Positions 4,955 through 31,610 of a DNA stretch of 53,921 nucleotides are shown one piece after another. Both the position numbers and the translations under genes were made by a program. Source of the DNA: Candidatus Onthovivens merdipullorum (GTDB lineage Bacteria > Bacillota_I > Bacilli_A > RFN20 > CAG-826); contig JADIMY010000013.1 of NCBI GenBank assembly GCA_017694345.1, positions 1 through 53,921 of the forward strand, given 5' to 3'. How positions within the stretch are numbered: position 1 is the first letter of the stretch; each line of letters opens with the position of its first letter. Below the pieces are notes generated by a model. The model saw only the letters and a list, made by a program, of their open reading frames with translations. It did no database searches and was not told the origin of the DNA.

Positions 4955-5426
4955 GTAGCGTTTACGCCTCAATATATTAACATAAACTAGATTAAATGTG
5001 CAAAAGAAATTGATAAATTTTTTGTTTGTGATATGGTAATTGTAATTTCAATGATATATGAATTTGTTTAACAAGATGTCCCTTATGTTATCACTAAAAG
5101 TAAGTAATTAGGAAATACATAATAAATGAAGTGATAACCTAAAAGTAGGCACAGAAATCATTTTTTGTAGATATAGTTGTTCTATTAAAAGAACATATAG
5201 AATTAAATAAAGAAACACAAATGTCGGCAAAAAGAAATTTAAAAAAGATGTATATTAGACATAGAAGGTTATAAAAATAAACATATGAGTTATTATTTGT
5301 ATGCTGAAAGATTTGATATAGGAAAAAGAGTATTTTCAAAAGAAATAGATTCTTAAAAAGCAGCTTCAATATACCAACATTACTTTTAATGTTAAAAAAG
5401 TAATTTGACTTTTTTTAAAATATAAA

Positions 5427-5440
5427 TGTAAGCGCTTACA
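5427..5440 (+). promoter_or_regulatory. Perfect cre / LacI-family operator palindrome TGTAAGCGCTTACA
   Basis: The site matches the cre consensus TGWNANCGNTNWCA at every constrained position. It lies 32 nt upstream of the 5472 ORF and is followed by GCGCGTTTAT. Confidence 0.7.
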
Positions 5441-8885: not shown

Positions 8886-9893
8886 TTAAGCAGTCGTCCC
8901 TTCAAAATATTGAACATTTACTTTAATATTTATCATTTTTTTATTTAAATTGCCCTTATTAATTAGATTTATCAATATTTCAAAACTTTTTTGAATAATT
9001 TCATCAGCATTAGGAGCTACACTACTAACCCTAATAGGATAGACATTACTTTCTTGAGTGTTGTCGTAGCCGATAATTTTTATTTTTTTGATTCTTTCTT
9101 CAAAATTTTCGTAAATAATTCGTAAAACTTCATAAGCAAGTAAATCGCTAAAACAAAAAATACCATCAATATTTGGGTTTTTATTTAAAGTTTCAATTAA
9201 TTGTGATGAAGCATTATTTGTTCTTGTTCCAATAATTATGTGATCTTGATCTAGATTATAATTTTTAAGATTTAATTCATCTTTAAATCCTTTTAATCTT
9301 TGCTTATCTATTTCTAATTCATTGTGTTCTGTAAAATATAAAAATTCATGAGAATTTTTATTAATTAATGTTTTAGCAGCGAGTTTGCCGCCTTCATAGT
9401 CATCAGAATATATTGAATTTATGTTAGTAGGTCTTCCATCTCGACCAATTAATAAGAGTGGTAGATTAAAACTGTCGATTAAGTTTTTAGCTTCTAATGT
9501 TGGCTCAATAAAAGTTAAAATAGCAGAAACTTGATAAGATATCGCTTTTTTAGCGATATCTATTGATAGATGTCCAATATGCCAACTATCAGCAAAAATC
9601 ATAGCATCATAATTTTTGCTATATAAGTAATTAGATATTTTTTCTAGCATCATCGAATAGTATGGATTAGTTAAATTATCGTAAACAATTGCGATAACAT
9701 CAAGCTTGCCACTTCGCAAAGTTTTAGCTCTTATATCTGGTATATAGCCAAGTTTATCAGCTATTTTTTTTACTTTATTTTTAGTTTTTTGCGAAATGCT
9801 TTTACTATCTTTCAAAGCTTTAGAAACTGAATTTATAGAAATGCCCGCCTTTTTAGCAATGTCTTTTAAAGTAATCTTCTTTTTAGCTACCAT
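8886..9893 (-). CDS. LacI/PurR-family transcriptional regulator
   Basis: N-terminal HTH ITLKDIAKKAGISINSVSKALKD...KVKKIADKLGYIPD, followed by a periplasmic-binding-protein-like sugar-binding core. It is divergent from the 10100 operon. Confidence 0.9.
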   Translation of the reverse strand: MVAKKKITLKDIAKKAGISINSVSKALKDSKSISQKTKNKVKKIADKLGYIPDIRAKTLRSGKLDVIAIVYDNLTNPYYSMMLEKISNYLYSKNYDAMIFADSWHIGHLSIDIAKKAISYQVSAILTFIEPTLEAKNLIDSFNLPLLLIGRDGRPTNINSIYSDDYEGGKLAAKTLINKNSHEFLYFTEHNELEIDKQRLKGFKDELNLKNYNLDQDHIIIGTRTNNASSQLIETLNKNPNIDGIFCFSDLLAYEVLRIIYENFEERIKKIKIIGYDNTQESNVYPIRVSSVAPNADEIIQKSFEILINLINKGNLNKKMINIKVNVQYFEGTTA

Positions 9894-9986
9894 ATTTTTA
9901 AATTATCATTAATAAAGTTTTAAAGCAACAAAAAAGTAATTTTATTTAATTTTAATAACATTAATTATAATGATATTATAAAATAT

Positions 9987-18032: not shown

Positions 18033-18095
18033 TACTTAGTTTCAAACATTATTTATAATGTTCGATTAATGTATGTTTAATATTCATAATAATAA

Positions 18096-18109
18096 TGTAA
18101 GCGCTTTCA
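18096..18109 (+). promoter_or_regulatory. cre / LacI-type operator TGTAAGCGCTTTCA
   Basis: The site fits TGWNANCGNTNWCA. It lies 38 nt upstream of the ATG at 18147 and just downstream of a candidate -10 (CATAAT, 18085-18090). GCGCGTTTAT follows it, as at site 5427. Confidence 0.65.
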
Positions 18110-18146
18110 ATTTATTAAGCGCGTTTATTTAGGAGGAAAATTGAAA

Positions 18147-20654
18147 ATGAAAAAAGGCAAGTTTTCATTATACATTCTCTCAGCCACACTTTTAGTGGGA
18201 TTAGGAGGAAGCGTCCTTGTAGGTTGTAATAATAAAGAGGAAGAACAAGCCATTGTAGTTTCTGCAGTTGAAATAACTGATGCAGATGGTTATGAACCTG
18301 ATACAACCGTAATGGATAATAGTGAAATTACTTTAAAAGCAAATGTCACAAGTAATTCTACCGATGCTCAAGCCAGAAGAGTAACTTGGACTTCATCAAA
18401 TAATGATGTTGCTAGTGTCGCTAGTGGTTTGGTGACATTTTATACCGTTACTGAAAATACTGAAGTAACAATTACTGCAACAAGTAGAAGTGATACAACT
18501 AAATCAGACTCAATTACTTTCACAGTAAAACATGGTGTTATAAATACTTATAATTCTCGACCAGTCGGTGGGCTTGATATTACCGATTATGTAACTGATA
18601 ATACAATCTCTCAAGAAGATAATGTCCAAGATACGGCTATGGTTTATAGTGATGTCTATAATAGTGATTTTTATGTTGAAACAGAAATTAGAATTGAAAA
18701 TACTAATGATGAAGATTTATATCCAAAATTTGGTATTATGGTTGGCACTAGTGAATATGGTGCTTGGCAAGATGGCGATAATAAATTTGCAATGTACTAT
18801 GTAGACTTAAATAAAGCAAGTTATGGCAACTGGAATACATTAGCTTTTGTTACCAATAACGAAGCTCTTAATGACTGGTCATGGGGTAGTCAAACAGAAA
18901 ATGCTTCAAGATTCAGTGTCACAACAAGTGTTAAAGAAAAAAGATATTTCAAACTTGGTTTATTAAGAGAAGGTAGTGATTATTACTTATTCTATGGAAC
19001 TAGTGAAGATAATTATGAAAGTTATAGATGCTATAAAAAAGTTACTTGGACTGGTGAAGGTAGCTTGGCCCCAGATGAAGTTTCTTATGCTTGGGTTGGT
19101 GGATTTAAAGCTGGTGTTACTGCAAGAAACTTTAAATCAGTGACAGATCCTGAAGAACTAGAGGCATTATTTGAAGAACCAACATCTCTAACTCTGGAAC
19201 AGACCGGAACACAATTTCTTGAGCAAGGACAATCTATGAAACTTAATGTTAACACTTCACCTATCAATGTTCATAACTTAACATTTACTTCAAGTAATCC
19301 TGAATTATTTAGTGTTACAGAAGATGGAGTCGTTACTTGTAATTCTTCTGAAATAGGTGAAAAAGCTACAATTACTGTTAGTTATGGATCCGGAGAAGAT
19401 GCTTTAAGCGCAAGTGTTCAATTTGCAGTCGAATACGCTGATCCTGTTTTTAAAGCTTCAACTATGAATGGTAATTTTGATAGATCTCACGAAAAAGACG
19501 AAGAAAATCCTTATGTTACAATGTATGACACTAATAATGTTGATCATATTTTACAATTTGCTGGAGAAGGATCAACTAAATGGTTTGCTGAAATGACTAT
19601 AGAACCACAACTCGTGTCAAGCGATGTAGACCCAGATGGGGTTATTAGTGCGTGGCCAAAAATAGGTCTTGCGGCTATGACAAATGGAAGTTCTGATGTT
19701 AGTTCAAGATTAATTTTCTATACTCCTGACGATGGTGAGTTTGGTACTACCCCAACTCAAGCGTTGAGACTTGGAGTGGAAAGAAGTGCCACTGGAGATA
19801 ATTGGAATTTACCAAATCCAGAAGGCTATGAAGACATTGATTATCGTGAACCAAGTGGTGAAATGCATCTAGGATTAGCAAGAGATGGTGCTGATTATTA
19901 TTTCTTCTATAATGATCAATTAATTAGAAAGAGAACATTAACTAGTGCATTTGATGCTTCTACACCAAGTTTACCTGGATTCTTAAGTTGGGGATATTAT
20001 GGTGCTAAGATTAGTAATTATCAATATCTTGAAGGTGATGAAGCTGATAGCGTTTTAAATAATATAAAAGATCGTGAAACTGATTCTTGGAAATTGCAAG
20101 GTCAACAAACATTGACTGATGATAAGAATTTCGTCTTTGGACATTTAGACACTTGTAATAATATTTTAGGTCTTAACAAAATGACTTATAAAAATACAAT
20201 TGATGCAACTAACTTTGATATTTCATTTACAATTTCTAACTATCGTGGTAGTAAAACAGCATGGTATTTTCCAAAATTAGGTGTTGTTTTAACTGGGACT
20301 GCGGATAATGCTCCATACTCTGAAGGAATTTATTTAGCCAGTGACAATGAATATGATAGAATAGAGACTAATATGTATGGAATTTGGGTCAATGGTGCTC
20401 AATTAGGTAGTGAAAATAATAGTTTCGATTACGATGCTTCGTTATATGATGAAACCATTGAACATAATGTGGTGATTTCTGTTAGAGGTGGGCAAGTATC
20501 TGTTACAATTGATGGGGTAGCAATTGCTTTAGAAAATAACGGCGGAACTCCTGTATTGACTAGAGGATTAAAAGGTACTGGTCCTTACACCTTGTCAATT
20601 GAAGGCGAAAAAGCTTCTGCTCAAATTAGTAATTTTACTGTTACAGAACTTTAA
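18147..20654 (+). CDS. Surface lipoprotein, paralog of 5855 and 29173 (Big_2 + LamG-like A + Big_2 + LamG-like B + LamG-like C), non-catalytic
   Basis: Lipobox LVGC|N. KSDSITFTVKHGVIN matches KHDSITFTVNHSIIN in 5855. Other motifs: DLYPKFGIMVGT...LGLLREGSDYYLFYG and WPKIGLAAMT...LGLARDGADYYFFYND. The ORF track starts at TTG 18141, but ATG 18147 has better spacing from AGGAGG (18131-18136). Confidence 0.75.
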   Translation: MKKGKFSLYILSATLLVGLGGSVLVGCNNKEEEQAIVVSAVEITDADGYEPDTTVMDNSEITLKANVTSNSTDAQARRVTWTSSNNDVASVASGLVTFYTVTENTEVTITATSRSDTTKSDSITFTVKHGVINTYNSRPVGGLDITDYVTDNTISQEDNVQDTAMVYSDVYNSDFYVETEIRIENTNDEDLYPKFGIMVGTSEYGAWQDGDNKFAMYYVDLNKASYGNWNTLAFVTNNEALNDWSWGSQTENASRFSVTTSVKEKRYFKLGLLREGSDYYLFYGTSEDNYESYRCYKKVTWTGEGSLAPDEVSYAWVGGFKAGVTARNFKSVTDPEELEALFEEPTSLTLEQTGTQFLEQGQSMKLNVNTSPINVHNLTFTSSNPELFSVTEDGVVTCNSSEIGEKATITVSYGSGEDALSASVQFAVEYADPVFKASTMNGNFDRSHEKDEENPYVTMYDTNNVDHILQFAGEGSTKWFAEMTIEPQLVSSDVDPDGVISAWPKIGLAAMTNGSSDVSSRLIFYTPDDGEFGTTPTQALRLGVERSATGDNWNLPNPEGYEDIDYREPSGEMHLGLARDGADYYFFYNDQLIRKRTLTSAFDASTPSLPGFLSWGYYGAKISNYQYLEGDEADSVLNNIKDRETDSWKLQGQQTLTDDKNFVFGHLDTCNNILGLNKMTYKNTIDATNFDISFTISNYRGSKTAWYFPKLGVVLTGTADNAPYSEGIYLASDNEYDRIETNMYGIWVNGAQLGSENNSFDYDASLYDETIEHNVVISVRGGQVSVTIDGVAIALENNGGTPVLTRGLKGTGPYTLSIEGEKASAQISNFTVTEL

Positions 20655-20690: not shown

Positions 20691-20725
20691 AAAACGAGCT
20701 ACGTTAAAAGTAGCTCGTTTTATTA
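20691..20725 (+). terminator. Intrinsic terminator
   Basis: AAAACGAGCTAC-GTTAAAA-GTAGCTCGTTTT followed by ATTAT. Confidence 0.75.
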
Positions 20726-20767
20726 TATTTATTGAAAAATTTAATTTTTTAAATTAATATCATTAAT

Positions 20768-21761
20768 ATGAGTTTATTAAAGCAAGTTGGTTTAAAAGAA
20801 ATAGCTTATGAATTAAAGGTAAGCGTAAATACTGTAAGTAGGGCCTTAAGAGATTGCGATGATATTAGCGAAGAAATGAAAAGGAAAGTTTGTGCTAAAG
20901 CAATTGAAATGGGCTATAGTCCTAATAATGTTGAAGAATACATAAAGAAAGACTTAAAAAGAAATATTGCTTTCTTAGGACCTGATTTTACAAATTCTTA
21001 TTTTATGTTAATGTGTAATGAACTTTATCATTATTTAAATAAAGATAAGTTTAATTTTAATGTAATTATATCTAATAGTAATTTTTTAACACTTAATGAC
21101 TTAAAAAGATGTATCCTTCAAAGAATTGATGGAATCATAACTTTTATTGAACCAAGTGATGAAGCAATAGAGACTGCCAAATTATATAGAATACCAATAG
21201 AAGTAGTTGGTAGAGAGATTAATAATTCTTCGATAGATCAATTATATACCAACGATTTCGTGGGGGGGGGTTTTAGCTGGAGAATACCTGATAAAAACCA
21301 AGTTATGTAAGAAAGTGTGCTTTCTTACATACGAAAATGTCGAATGTTCCTTGCGTCGATTCGAGGGATTCAAGAAAGTTTGTGATGAAAATGGCGTAAA
21401 CGCCGAAACATTTATTGTTAAAGATAAGAAAACACTCGACATTAATTATTTTTTAGAAAATAAGTTTGATGGTATTTTTTGTTTTAATGATGAAATAGCT
21501 TATAACCTTCTTTATAAATTTGATGTAGTCGAAGATACTTATTTAGAAGAACAATTAAAGAATATAAAAATTATTGGATATGATGCATTAGCTCATAGAA
21601 TAAGAGGATTAAAAAGAATTACTAGTATTAACTTTAATTATCACGAAATAGCTAAAAAGGCTATTGAGATAATACAAAGAAGAGTCTTAAATAGTGAAGA
21701 TAATTCTCCTTTTGAAAAGATATGTTTTGATGTCTCTTTATATTTAAAAAAGAAGGATTAG
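20768..21761 (+). pseudogene. LacI-family regulator split by a frameshift inside a G9 homopolymer (ORFs 20768-21310 and 21315-21761)
   Basis: The HTH is LKEIAYELKVSVNTVSRALRD...AIEMGYSPN. ORF1 runs ...YTNDFVGGG and then goes out of frame. The +1 frame reads ..VLAGEYLIKTKLCKKVCFLTYENVECSLRRFEGFKKVCDENG, which aligns with DDYEGGKLAAKTLINKN...RLKGFKDEL of the 8886 paralog. Removing one G restores a single ORF of about 330 aa. Confidence 0.8.
21262..21270 (+). repeat. Poly-G tract (G9) at the frameshift point of the LacI-family gene
   Basis: Sequence tcgtGGGGGGGGGtttt. No comparable G/C homopolymer was noticed elsewhere in the window. Confidence 0.9.
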
Positions 21762-21764
21762 TAA

Positions 21765-22430
21765 TCACTTAATACTAAAAGAATTATCATCTAAAAAACT
21801 AAATATAATTTTGTTATTTTCAATTTTATAATTGAGTTCTGCAGTAAAAACTTGATTTTCAATGACTTTTTGATTATTTTCATATTGATAAAAAGAAGTA
21901 GTTATATCAATTTGAAAATTGTTGTGTTTAAAAGTTTTAATATCAATTGGATAATATACACTTATTCCACTATTAAAAGAAAAGCTACATAAATCAAAAT
22001 CACCTTCTTGATATTTATATTTCTCTAAAGAAAAATCGTCAACACTATAAGTCACATTGTTATCAAGTGGATCATCTTCACAATAAATATCAAGTTTAAT
22101 AGCAAAAGGATTAGTAATTGAATAATCATCTATTAAGTTAGTACTTTCATTTTCAAACTTCGTTGCTATAAATAAAACATCTAAATTGTATTGATTTGGA
22201 TTAATTAAAATATCTTCTTTTTTGATTTTAAAGCCACTTGCAAAATAGTAAAACAAAGTTGGTTCTTCTAATACGCCTTCTTCAATGGGTGGAGTATACA
22301 AAGGCGACCATAAAGGATATAAACGCTGTAAGTATTCCTCACCATCACATAATTTTATTTCTTTTTCTTTACAAGCAGTTAAAGAAGCAATTGAAAGAAG
22401 AAAACTTATTATAACAAAAAAATTTTTCAT
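21765..22430 (-). CDS. Hypothetical lipoprotein (221 aa)
   Basis: Lipobox LTAC|K. Its start overlaps the stop of the upstream HExxH gene (ATGA). No other motif was recognised. Confidence 0.6.
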   Translation of the reverse strand: MKNFFVIISFLLSIASLTACKEKEIKLCDGEEYLQRLYPLWSPLYTPPIEEGVLEEPTLFYYFASGFKIKKEDILINPNQYNLDVLFIATKFENESTNLIDDYSITNPFAIKLDIYCEDDPLDNNVTYSVDDFSLEKYKYQEGDFDLCSFSFNSGISVYYPIDIKTFKHNNFQIDITTSFYQYENNQKVIENQVFTAELNYKIENNKIIFSFLDDNSFSIK

Positions 22431-24322
22431 AATTCAATTTCCTCTATATTACTGTAATAGTATCCAGTTTCATAATAATTGGAATTTTTAAATCTAGCAC
22501 ATAAAAGTATTTTATCGTGATGTAATTTGTAATTTTGAATATCCGCTGATGAGATAGTATATTTTTCTTGAACAATATTAGGATAAACTTTATTAAAAAT
22601 TTTATTTTCTTCATCAGTTAGTATGATAATGTCACAAGAAGTATATGGAAAATGAACACTTCCCGAATAATAATCTAAATTTATTATTATCTCATTATTA
22701 TTTGTGTATTTTGCTGTTATTGGATTAATGAAATCTAATTTATCTAATATTTCATATAAATCAAACTGGTAATCTCTATTGAATTTATAAATTTCGTTTA
22801 ATAAATCAGAAATAGTAAATATACTTTGATTAAAGAAGAGGCTTAAAAAGTCATCTTTATTAATATTTTGTATATCATTTGTAAACAAAAGTTTATATAA
22901 GAGATCTACAATTGCACTCTCATCACCTTCCCCATAAAAATTGTATCCTGCATCGTTAACAAAATCAAAATGTACCCCTAACGACGATGTGTAACATCCA
23001 TCATTTCCAGTATCAAAATTATCAAAAAAATCACTATATGAATTTTGAACTATAAAACTTAAAATTGTTGCAGTTCCTTCAGAATATGCAATTTTTAAGC
23101 CTTTTTCTCTAGATTTATTAATTGCATAGGCATTATTATTGTAATAATAATCTTGCATATTTGTCGAAAATGAATGTGTTCCGCCTGGGTTATCTCCTAA
23201 ATTCATAACTTCTTGTATTAAATGTGCGTATTCATGCAAAATTACATCAACATCCAAATAAGATGGTACTTGTTTATTCTTATGTTCTGCCAAGCGAATT
23301 ATGCCACCGCTATATGATGAATTGTCTTCTGATGAAGGAAAAATTGCTTTTACAAATGATTTTGGAACATTTTTATTAATAAAATACTGTCCACCATAAT
23401 AAAGTATTTGGTTTATAATTAAACTTTTATATTTGTAGCTACTATTATCATTGATATAAAAAGTAGTAGAGTAATTTTTATAAAAATTATTTCCAATATT
23501 TTTATCAACAGTACTATCAAAAACATAGTAATCCCCAGCATCATTAGTTACTCCTGCATAATTTCCACCAGCATAAAATCTTGTATAAACATCATAGCCA
23601 CCACCAAATATGTCTTCTGTAGTTTTTTCAAAATCGTATCTAAAATACCCGTTTTCATCTGTTATGACAGTTGCTATGAGATCGTCATTTAATGCATCGT
23701 CGTCCATTATGTCTACCCTTAATCCGACTAAAGGAAATGATTTATTTTTAAAATTGAATTTAAGGTATCCTTCTACAAATGGTGTTGAACTTATAGTTCT
23801 TGTCGAACTATAGTAATTCTTAACACTGTTTCCAATATTTAATTCGGTTGTATCAGCTAAAATTTGATATGTGCTTTCAGTAATGATATTAAGCATTTTT
23901 AATTTAGAGTAGAGAATATTGTTTGCATCTTCTAAAGAATATTTACTAGTAGCAACATAATTGTTATAAGCAGAAAAATATAAAGTTAAATTTAGCGCTG
24001 GGATAAAAAAATAACTATCTTTGTATATGCAAAAGCTGATTTTTGCAATATTTTGTTCTATTACTTTTACTTCATATTGGCAATCTGCATCGATTGTTAA
24101 AGTCTGAGAATCTTTAAATTTTTTAATAGTAAGAGAGAATTGATTATTCTTATAAAAATTAGAGTAATCTAAAAATTGAAATTTTGTTGCTGGATAGTCT
24201 TGGTTTTCAAATAAATTAGTTTCATTGTAATTTTCTGCATTGTTATCACAAATTTTAATATTACGATTATTAGAAAATAATGCAAGAATAGTTAAAACTG
24301 CTACTATAAAAGTCTGTTTCAT
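22427..24322 (-). CDS. Secreted putative zinc metallopeptidase (HExxH) with a transthyretin-like / carboxypeptidase-regulatory-like domain
   Basis: RBS AGGAGG and an N-terminal signal peptide. PLVGLRVDIMDDD...TDENGYFRYDF looks like a CarbopepD_reg-like segment. HEYAH is encoded at 23222-23236, with a candidate third ligand in AYSEGTA about 38 aa downstream. Confidence 0.55.
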   Translation of the reverse strand: MKQTFIVAVLTILALFSNNRNIKICDNNAENYNETNLFENQDYPATKFQFLDYSNFYKNNQFSLTIKKFKDSQTLTIDADCQYEVKVIEQNIAKISFCIYKDSYFFIPALNLTLYFSAYNNYVATSKYSLEDANNILYSKLKMLNIITESTYQILADTTELNIGNSVKNYYSSTRTISSTPFVEGYLKFNFKNKSFPLVGLRVDIMDDDALNDDLIATVITDENGYFRYDFEKTTEDIFGGGYDVYTRFYAGGNYAGVTNDAGDYYVFDSTVDKNIGNNFYKNYSTTFYINDNSSYKYKSLIINQILYYGGQYFINKNVPKSFVKAIFPSSEDNSSYSGGIIRLAEHKNKQVPSYLDVDVILHEYAHLIQEVMNLGDNPGGTHSFSTNMQDYYYNNNAYAINKSREKGLKIAYSEGTATILSFIVQNSYSDFFDNFDTGNDGCYTSSLGVHFDFVNDAGYNFYGEGDESAIVDLLYKLLFTNDIQNINKDDFLSLFFNQSIFTISDLLNEIYKFNRDYQFDLYEILDKLDFINPITAKYTNNNEIIINLDYYSGSVHFPYTSCDIIILTDEENKIFNKVYPNIVQEKYTISSADIQNYKLHHDKILLCARFKNSNYYETGYYYSNIEEIEL

Positions 24323-25880: not shown

Positions 25881-26036
25881 GAACTAACCTCATTTTCTAG
25901 AAAACATTTTAAAACTTTATATTTATTAATCATCTAGATAATAACATTATTAATAAAGTTAAGATTTTAAATTAGAAAGTAGAAGGAAACACTCTTTTTT
26001 GTTAACATTTAATTAAATTTTGGAGGCAGTTTCTCT

Positions 26037-29122: not shown

Positions 29123-29136
29123 TGTAAGCGGTTTCA
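29123..29136 (+). promoter_or_regulatory. cre / LacI-type operator TGTAAGCGGTTTCA
   Basis: The site fits TGWNANCGNTNWCA. It lies 37 nt upstream of the ATG at 29173 and abuts a TAAAAT -10-like hexamer. Confidence 0.6.
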
Positions 29137-31596: not shown

Positions 31597-31610
31597 TGTA
31601 AGCGCTTACA
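31597..31610 (+). promoter_or_regulatory. Perfect cre / LacI-type operator TGTAAGCGCTTACA (extends to TTGTAAGCGCTTACAA)
   Basis: The 14-mer is identical to site 5427. It lies 27 nt upstream of the ATG at 31637. Confidence 0.7.

Follow-up and report, generated by a model that had tools for sequence, protein, structure and literature searches.

A LacI-family regulator gene that is split at a run of nine guanines raises the question of whether the gene is dead, misassembled, or switched on and off by changes in the length of the run. The gene lies in a stretch of 53,921 nt from Candidatus Onthovivens merdipullorum (28% GC), which we refer to as the window. The original prediction placed the break in the reading frame exactly at this homopolymer and proposed a slipped-strand phase switch. 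The parts of the gene relevant to this proposal are as follows.

20691 to 20721, plus strand: intrinsic-terminator-like hairpin at the end of the upstream Big_2 lipoprotein gene (hairpin prediction)
20732 to 20760, plus strand: promoter-like site TTGAAA-17-TAATAT, 8 nt before the ATG (sequence)
20768 to 21310, plus strand: N-terminal LacI-family fragment with G9, 180 aa, helix-turn-helix (HTH) at residues 9 to 53 (ORF call, Pfam)
21262 to 21270, plus strand: G9 homopolymer, candidate slippage site (sequence, codon usage, frame test)
21271 to 21761, plus strand: C-terminal coding part in the G8 frame, with the effector-binding and dimerisation subdomain (ORF call, dN/dS)

With nine guanines, the first reading frame terminates at an out-of-frame TAA (21308-21310), and a second one of 148 aa is called mechanically at 21315-21761. 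Removal of a single G fuses the two into a reading frame of 330 aa that crosses the junction as ...NDFVGGVLAGEYLIKTK..., just as had been claimed. Tract lengths of G8 and G11 preserve the frame, and G7, G9, and G10 disrupt it. A slippage-prone repeat whose length toggles the reading frame is one of the defining properties of an SSR-mediated phase-variable locus, and the tract has this property. In its G8 form it encodes Val-Gly-Gly-Val (GTG GGG GGG GTT), which corresponds to the conserved Gly-Gly of the LacI family. UGA is read as a stop codon in the window, because the sequence is tiled by long table-11 ORFs. An analogy with Mollicutes that accompanied the initial proposal is therefore loose, given also that an uncultured low-GC Firmicute is the nearest relative with a name. 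A scan of genome contigs for relatives gave a best match of 44% identity, to an uncultured Firmicute MAG.

The G8-form protein has both hallmarks of a LacI/GalR family member, an HTH and an effector domain. The Pfam LacI HTH model (PF00356) matches residues 9-53 with 39.5 bits against a cut-off of 27, and a periplasmic-binding-protein-like effector domain contiguous with the HTH is found solely in the G8-repaired reading. Solved LacI-family structures (7ff4, CcpA 1zvv/1rzr, and PurR) align to repaired residues 11-324 with E values from 6e-12 to 1e-9. Matches of the repaired protein to Peripla_BP_3 and Peripla_BP_4 score under the curated Pfam cut-offs, and the intact orthologs of 330/331 aa carry these domains. 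Alignment with an intact paralog on the minus strand (8886-9893), also part of the original prediction, was reproduced at 29% identity over 312 aa (E 1e-39) and spans the junction.

The regulator gene appears to be its own transcription unit, as judged from the terminator-like and promoter-like sites that precede it. It has no Shine-Dalgarno sequence, and the -10 box of the promoter-like site ends 8 nt ahead of the ATG (20732-20767); its mRNA may be leaderless or weakly translated. Within the coding sequence, 34 nt downstream from the G tract, lies a perfect 12-bp hairpin (TATGTAAGAAAG-TGTG-CTTTCTTACATA, 21304-21331; z = -4.4 relative to shuffled sequences) that includes the stop codon of the G9 frame. 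The hairpin is kept in all three lineages described below, with a SNP in the loop, and its minus strand scores as terminator-like. An ortholog of 58% identity (L035) has a 9-bp hairpin at the equivalent place, and another (L034) has none.

A G9 run is indeed exceptional in sequence this AT-rich. It is the only run of G or C longer than six in the 53,921 nt, and base composition leads to an expectation of 0.004 runs of nine or more in the window. Its codons are also rare there: 7.9% of glycines are encoded by GGG and 5% of valines by GTG, and GGG-GGG is not used for any of the 85 further Gly-Gly pairs. When the synonymous codons of all window genes were shuffled, a G/C run of at least eight turned up in 6% of 300 shuffles, and therefore one or two such runs per genome are possible by chance. 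Coding A/T runs fall far below the corresponding shuffle expectation, with 26 observed versus 56 expected at lengths of at least seven, 3 versus 18.6 at lengths of at least eight, and 0 versus 5.8 at lengths of at least nine. This strong depletion indicates selection against slippage-prone runs. The genome generally purges such runs, and the G tract is conspicuous against that background.

Whether the tract varies in nature was addressed with material consisting entirely of assembled contigs from chicken-gut metagenomes of several studies. Contigs from 18 runs were compared with the window, and the organism was present in 16 of these runs; it was not found in X17 and X18, which come from the same study as X7. 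Another 18 loci that encode the protein or fragments of it were included. Distances among the sequences reveal three lineages of one species in these public assemblies.

Lineage A, identical strain to the window: G9 in the window and L012 (ERZ27234726); G8 in X2; the X1 contig begins inside the tract
Lineage B, about 5% from the window and 0.4-0.6% internally: G8 in L002, L003, and X8; G9 in L011 (ERZ16268115) and X7; interrupted tract GGGAGGGG (G3AG4) in L001, L004-L006, L040-L043, X9, X10, and X14
Lineage C, 2.3% from the window: ATG and G8, with an intact gene, in L007-L010, X3, and X4

Over 20 kb, the window is separated from X1 by 1 SNP and from X2 by 3, and the sole indel in this span is the change from G9 in the window to G8 in X2, a contig with a depth of only 3.4x. 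The X1 contig breaks within the tract, at 21267, and L012 may derive from the same assembly as the window. In lineage B, X7 is a 28.6-kb contig with 21.9x depth that carries G9 and has no gap relative to the window. In both L011 and X7 the G9 lies between two lineage-B SNPs (21217 and 21287), which shows that it originated independently and did not come from lineage A. This lineage-B G9 was called by two assemblers, once in an ENA scaffold and once in a Logan contig, and the exact 180-aa G9 product of lineage A is recorded in NCBI, ENA, and Logan sources. Judged from these sequences, G9 arose at least twice independently. Length polymorphism among near-identical strains, with more than one origin, is a second property of phase-variable loci, and it is seen here through two or three events among ~25 consensus sequences from metagenomes.

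The interrupted tract differs by a synonymous substitution (GGG to GGA), which breaks up the run and leaves the reading frame as it was. It was found in nine fetched loci (the eight listed above and L039) and in three runs, although these samples may overlap, and it is present in about half of the lineage-B samples. Comparison of tract length among related strains had been set beforehand as a test that could overturn the original prediction. It revealed that the length is not fixed and that the gene carries no further decay. This result also illustrates that contig comparison across public metagenomes is able, with no reads at hand, to tell a variable tract from a dead gene or an assembly error.

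The same alignments reveal that the gene is maintained. Values of dN/dS between lineages are 0.02-0.07 upstream of and downstream from the tract when the G8 frame is used, and the C-terminal part by itself gives 0.02. The tract is the single indel of the LacI gene among the first 13 sequences, and 4.67 kb aligned across 10 sequences contains only two indel sites, both of them homopolymers. A search of the OFF (frameshifted) alleles for a second lesion yielded none. Because dN/dS is low on both sides of the tract and the OFF alleles are otherwise undamaged, we conclude that the species retains a functional gene and that G9 is a young, recurrent allele. A plain, fixed pseudogene, which had been raised as an alternative at the outset, is therefore rejected, a view reinforced by the existence of intact G8 alleles. 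The “pseudogene” of the assembly would be better annotated as a frameshift-variable functional gene. Purifying selection and the lack of secondary lesions in OFF alleles are also compatible with reversion from OFF to ON.

Evidence on whether the repeat itself is maintained points in the opposite direction. No conserved repeat was found in orthologs of 42-60% identity. These encode the Gly-Gly with other codons (GGT GGA or GGA GGG at 58-60% identity and GGC GGT at 42%), and the tract is therefore specific to this species. Evolutionary maintenance of the repeat, a third property of phase-variable loci, is thus lacking, both among orthologs without the run and among strains in which it is interrupted. 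Its absence from sister species and its interruption in lineage B argue against selection to keep a switch. The proposed phase switch consequently holds up with regard to frame toggling, the polymorphism of G8, G9, and G3AG4, and recurrence, but not with regard to any evident selection on the tract.

Two additional observations concern the sequence just past the Gly-Gly codons. A block of about 250 bp (21287-21530), beginning 17 nt past the tract, is ~10% diverged from lineages B and C through differences that are almost all synonymous (dS 0.36-0.52, versus 0.06-0.08 in the N-terminal half), which suggests a recombination boundary next to the tract. In Coprobacillus sp. CAG:826, the only named relative, the LacI ortholog P0113 (50% identity) is truncated to 194 aa. 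It ends ~20 residues past the Gly-Gly motif and may be another copy broken at a nearby position in a different species.

The explanation that we consider probable is a recurrent, SSR-type ON/OFF polymorphism that resembles phase variation, in which slippage at the G8 run toggles a functional repressor gene. The gene would encode a LacI/GalR-family repressor of a low-GC chicken-gut Firmicute whose Gly-Gly happens to be written as a G8 run. We infer that slipped-strand mispairing during replication adds or drops one G at this run, such that G8 would be the ON state with an intact gene and G9 the OFF state, with the window having caught an OFF allele. In the OFF state, translation would stop at 21308-21310 and leave a 180-aa fragment without the C-terminal effector-binding and dimerisation subdomain. 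As suggested by synteny, loss of the repressor would derepress the adjacent genes for surface lipoproteins, an ABC importer, and GH43, GH2, GH36, and esterase enzymes of hemicellulose utilisation. In natural populations the locus would behave in a phase-variation-like manner because its OFF alleles are recurrent, young, and otherwise undamaged.

A more ambitious version of this explanation, which we regard as possible but doubtful, is that the tract forms a genuine contingency locus that stochastically toggles a carbohydrate-utilisation repressor. The population would then hedge between inducible and constitutive expression of glycan-capture lipoproteins, the ABC importer, and GH43-rich machinery, and the GGGAGGGG alleles would be locked ON. 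If this were true, SSR phase variation would reach from the surface antigens of pathogens to metabolic regulation in commensal Firmicutes. A real switch would also be a natural case of a gut commensal flipping a nutrient-utilisation regulator by means of a homopolymer, and the G8, G9, and locked alleles could serve as a marker for switching in metagenome time series from chickens fed different fibre diets.

A less elaborate account, to which we assign a modest chance, is that the run is a mutational hotspot present by coincidence. The G9 alleles would then be sporadic knockouts, neutral or mildly deleterious, that are lost again without meaningful reversion and have no adaptive role. Such dead-end loss is in keeping with the sister species that have no tract, the many strains in which it has eroded to GGGAGGGG, the one or two runs per genome predicted by codon shuffles, and the further homopolymer frameshifts in the LacI gene and its neighbor described below. 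It fits poorly with the low dN/dS of the gene (0.02-0.07) combined with OFF alleles that became the consensus in at least two different gut populations among the ~20-25 sampled. Those alleles carry no second lesion, and with L039 the LacI gene has been frameshifted independently a third time, a degree of convergence that drift does not readily explain.

The remaining two accounts deny that G9 is an OFF allele at all. There is a small chance that G9 reflects a homopolymer sequencing or assembly error and that the source organism is really G8 with an intact gene. Homopolymers are prone to error, the identical strain X2 reads G8, the X1 contig breaks inside the tract, and L012 is possibly not independent of the window; but the contig names (k141, k87, and NODE/scaffold) indicate short-read assemblers, with which a consensus error in a 9-mer would be unusual. 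The independent recurrence of G9 in lineage B, reproduced by two assemblers and at ~22x depth, speaks against the one-off error that had initially been listed as an alternative, as does the record of the window-lineage 180-aa product in three sources, and pure assembly error is an unlikely cause of G9. Most improbable of all is recoding, whereby the G9 form would be leaky and yield some full-length repressor via transcriptional slippage or +1 ribosomal frameshifting on GGG GGG GGT. Runs of nine identical bases are known substrates for slippage by RNA polymerase, tRNA re-pairing on a G run would be perfect, and the 12-bp hairpin lies downstream. Yet the hairpin is too distant for classical frameshift stimulation, and G9 is not the designed state, given that the tract of most strains is either interrupted or a G8 that preserves the frame.

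If slippage toggles the gene as we favor, several bacterial systems offer precedents. Campylobacter jejuni, in which mismatch repair is not known, has dozens of poly-G contingency tracts, mostly in surface-structure genes. The likeness extends to frame toggling by G runs of at least eight in a chicken-gut bacterium with a genome of ~30% GC, whereas the locus described here is one tract in 54 kb and lies in a regulator. In Escherichia coli, tandem CTGG repeats form the frameshift hotspot of lacI, which is seen as a mutational hotspot rather than as phase variation. Both cases involve a repeat in the gene for a LacI-family repressor, with recurrent slippage frameshifts and constitutive operon expression, but the repeat of lacI is a tetranucleotide and not a homopolymer.

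Regulator genes with homopolymer switches provide closer comparisons. The regulator gene rmpA of hypervirulent Klebsiella pneumoniae undergoes poly-G phase variation (bioRxiv 10.1101/2025.09.12.675794). There too a G run lies in the coding sequence of a regulator, one-G changes toggle the frame and with it a downstream gene set, and variants are found across genomes. However, the product of rmpA activates capsule mucoidy in a Gram-negative pathogen, and both the switching and its reversal have been measured there; the present gene, from an uncultured gut commensal, is of the LacI type, presumably encodes a repressor of carbohydrate use, and is known solely from genome comparison. In group A Streptococcus, a C8-to-C7 frameshift in mga causes loss of function (summarised in PMC11868660). 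That case, too, involves a mononucleotide 8-mer in a Firmicute regulator gene where a one-base change abolishes function, as is proposed here, with the differences that reversion was seen only under selection in animals and that the targets form a virulence regulon rather than a glycan-utilisation locus. The same paper defines phase variation as switching that is both frequent and reversible (PMC11868660).

Homopolymer indels that recur independently have likewise been recognized by comparing many genomes, as frameshift homoplasy in Mycobacterium tuberculosis (PMC10334774) and as SSR-driven reversible loss of function in Staphylococcus aureus (bioRxiv 10.1101/2025.07.08.663602). The resemblance lies in one-base changes that strike a conserved gene repeatedly; those studies involved thousands of isolates and rate measurements, compared with about 25 consensus sequences here. 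By analogy with these systems, the case belongs to an already known class, that of homopolymer frameshift variation in regulators. A literature search for a phase-variable poly-G tract in a LacI-family gene found no report.

What the regulator might control is suggested by its surroundings. The window is a glycan-utilisation region with Big_2 lipoproteins, SASA and GDSL esterases, an ABC sugar importer, six GH43 enzymes, GH2, and GH36, along with large surface proteins that contain F5/8-type-C, GLUG, and amylase domains. Hydrolase genes of the SASA, GH43, GH36, and GDSL types always adjoin the LacI orthologs of 42-60% identity. Those of 58-60% identity are in addition accompanied by an RDD gene and, upstream, by a gene for a large surface protein, which in L035 is a Big_2 lipoprotein, and the neighborhoods in L035-L037 include SBP and ABC-permease genes. 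This conserved synteny supports local control by the LacI regulator. Candidate sites for such control are listed here.

5427 to 5440: further cre-like copy
18096 to 18109, plus strand: cre-like palindrome TGTAAGCGCTTTCA, candidate site 32 nt upstream of the adjacent Big_2 lipoprotein gene
29123 to 29136: further cre-like copy
31597 to 31610, plus strand: perfect TGTAAGCGCTTACA upstream of the gene for an ABC solute-binding protein

The cre-like palindrome TGTAAGCGCTTACA is present in four copies versus 0.11 expected in the window, each 12-45 nt before a start codon, and it is kept at orthologous promoters. Assignment of TGTAAGCGCTTACA to the split regulator is unproven, because the palindrome is identical to the generic cre/CcpA consensus and the window encodes a second LacI paralog. 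A search for a distinct operator of the split regulator found only cre-like and AT-rich palindromes, neither of which is assignable. Most members of the LacI family are repressors, and G9 would lead to constitutive expression provided that this protein is one as well.

The AT-rich palindrome, ACATTAnnnnTAATGT, occurs in the window at 5377-5392, 9958-9973, 18046-18061, and 25944-25959, and in other species at 4959 and 10449 of L034 and at 5261 and 13309 of L035. At several promoters in the window and in the other species it precedes the cre-like site by 50 nt (by 51 nt at one promoter of L035), and it occurs alone upstream of the SASA esterase gene. It may be a second conserved regulatory element or a promoter core.

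Frameshifts and larger differences were also encountered at other positions in and near the LacI gene, including the following run.

21082 to 21087, plus strand: T6 run inside the LacI gene, which is T7 (frameshift) in L039 (locus comparison)

The L039 locus (ERZ16268120) combines an interrupted G tract with this T6-to-T7 frameshift, which would be the third independent homopolymer frameshift in the LacI gene, with error possible on a scaffold of 840 nt. The same change accounts for P0126 (167 aa), which had been considered as a contig break at the G tract and was set aside because the frameshift lies upstream in the same gene. Similarly, the 331-aa cluster representative P0001 was considered as a G11 allele and discarded, its extra residue being a C-terminal Q and its tract G8 or G3AG4. 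In the adjacent gene for a 221-aa lipoprotein (21765-22430, minus strand), the run at 22218-22224 is T6G in both lineage A and lineage C, and most lineage-B sequences have T7 there. L001 and L002 have T6 instead, with a lipoprotein gene cut down to 74 aa. These T6/T7 changes in the LacI and lipoprotein genes suggest that homopolymers are unstable in general, or that assembly introduced noise, and speak less for a dedicated switch.

Beyond the lipoprotein gene, a 631-aa gene with no Pfam match (22427-24322, minus strand) occurs in the window lineage only. In its place, lineage B has a gap of ~630 nt with remnant ORFs of 36-60 aa and lineage C a gap of 73 nt, which identifies this segment as a strain-specific insertion or deletion. 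On the other side of the regulator, the 835-aa Big_2 lipoprotein gene (18141-20654 in the window) is split in L009 (380-2887) into parts of 552 and 263 aa with no indel, presumably by a nonsense substitution.
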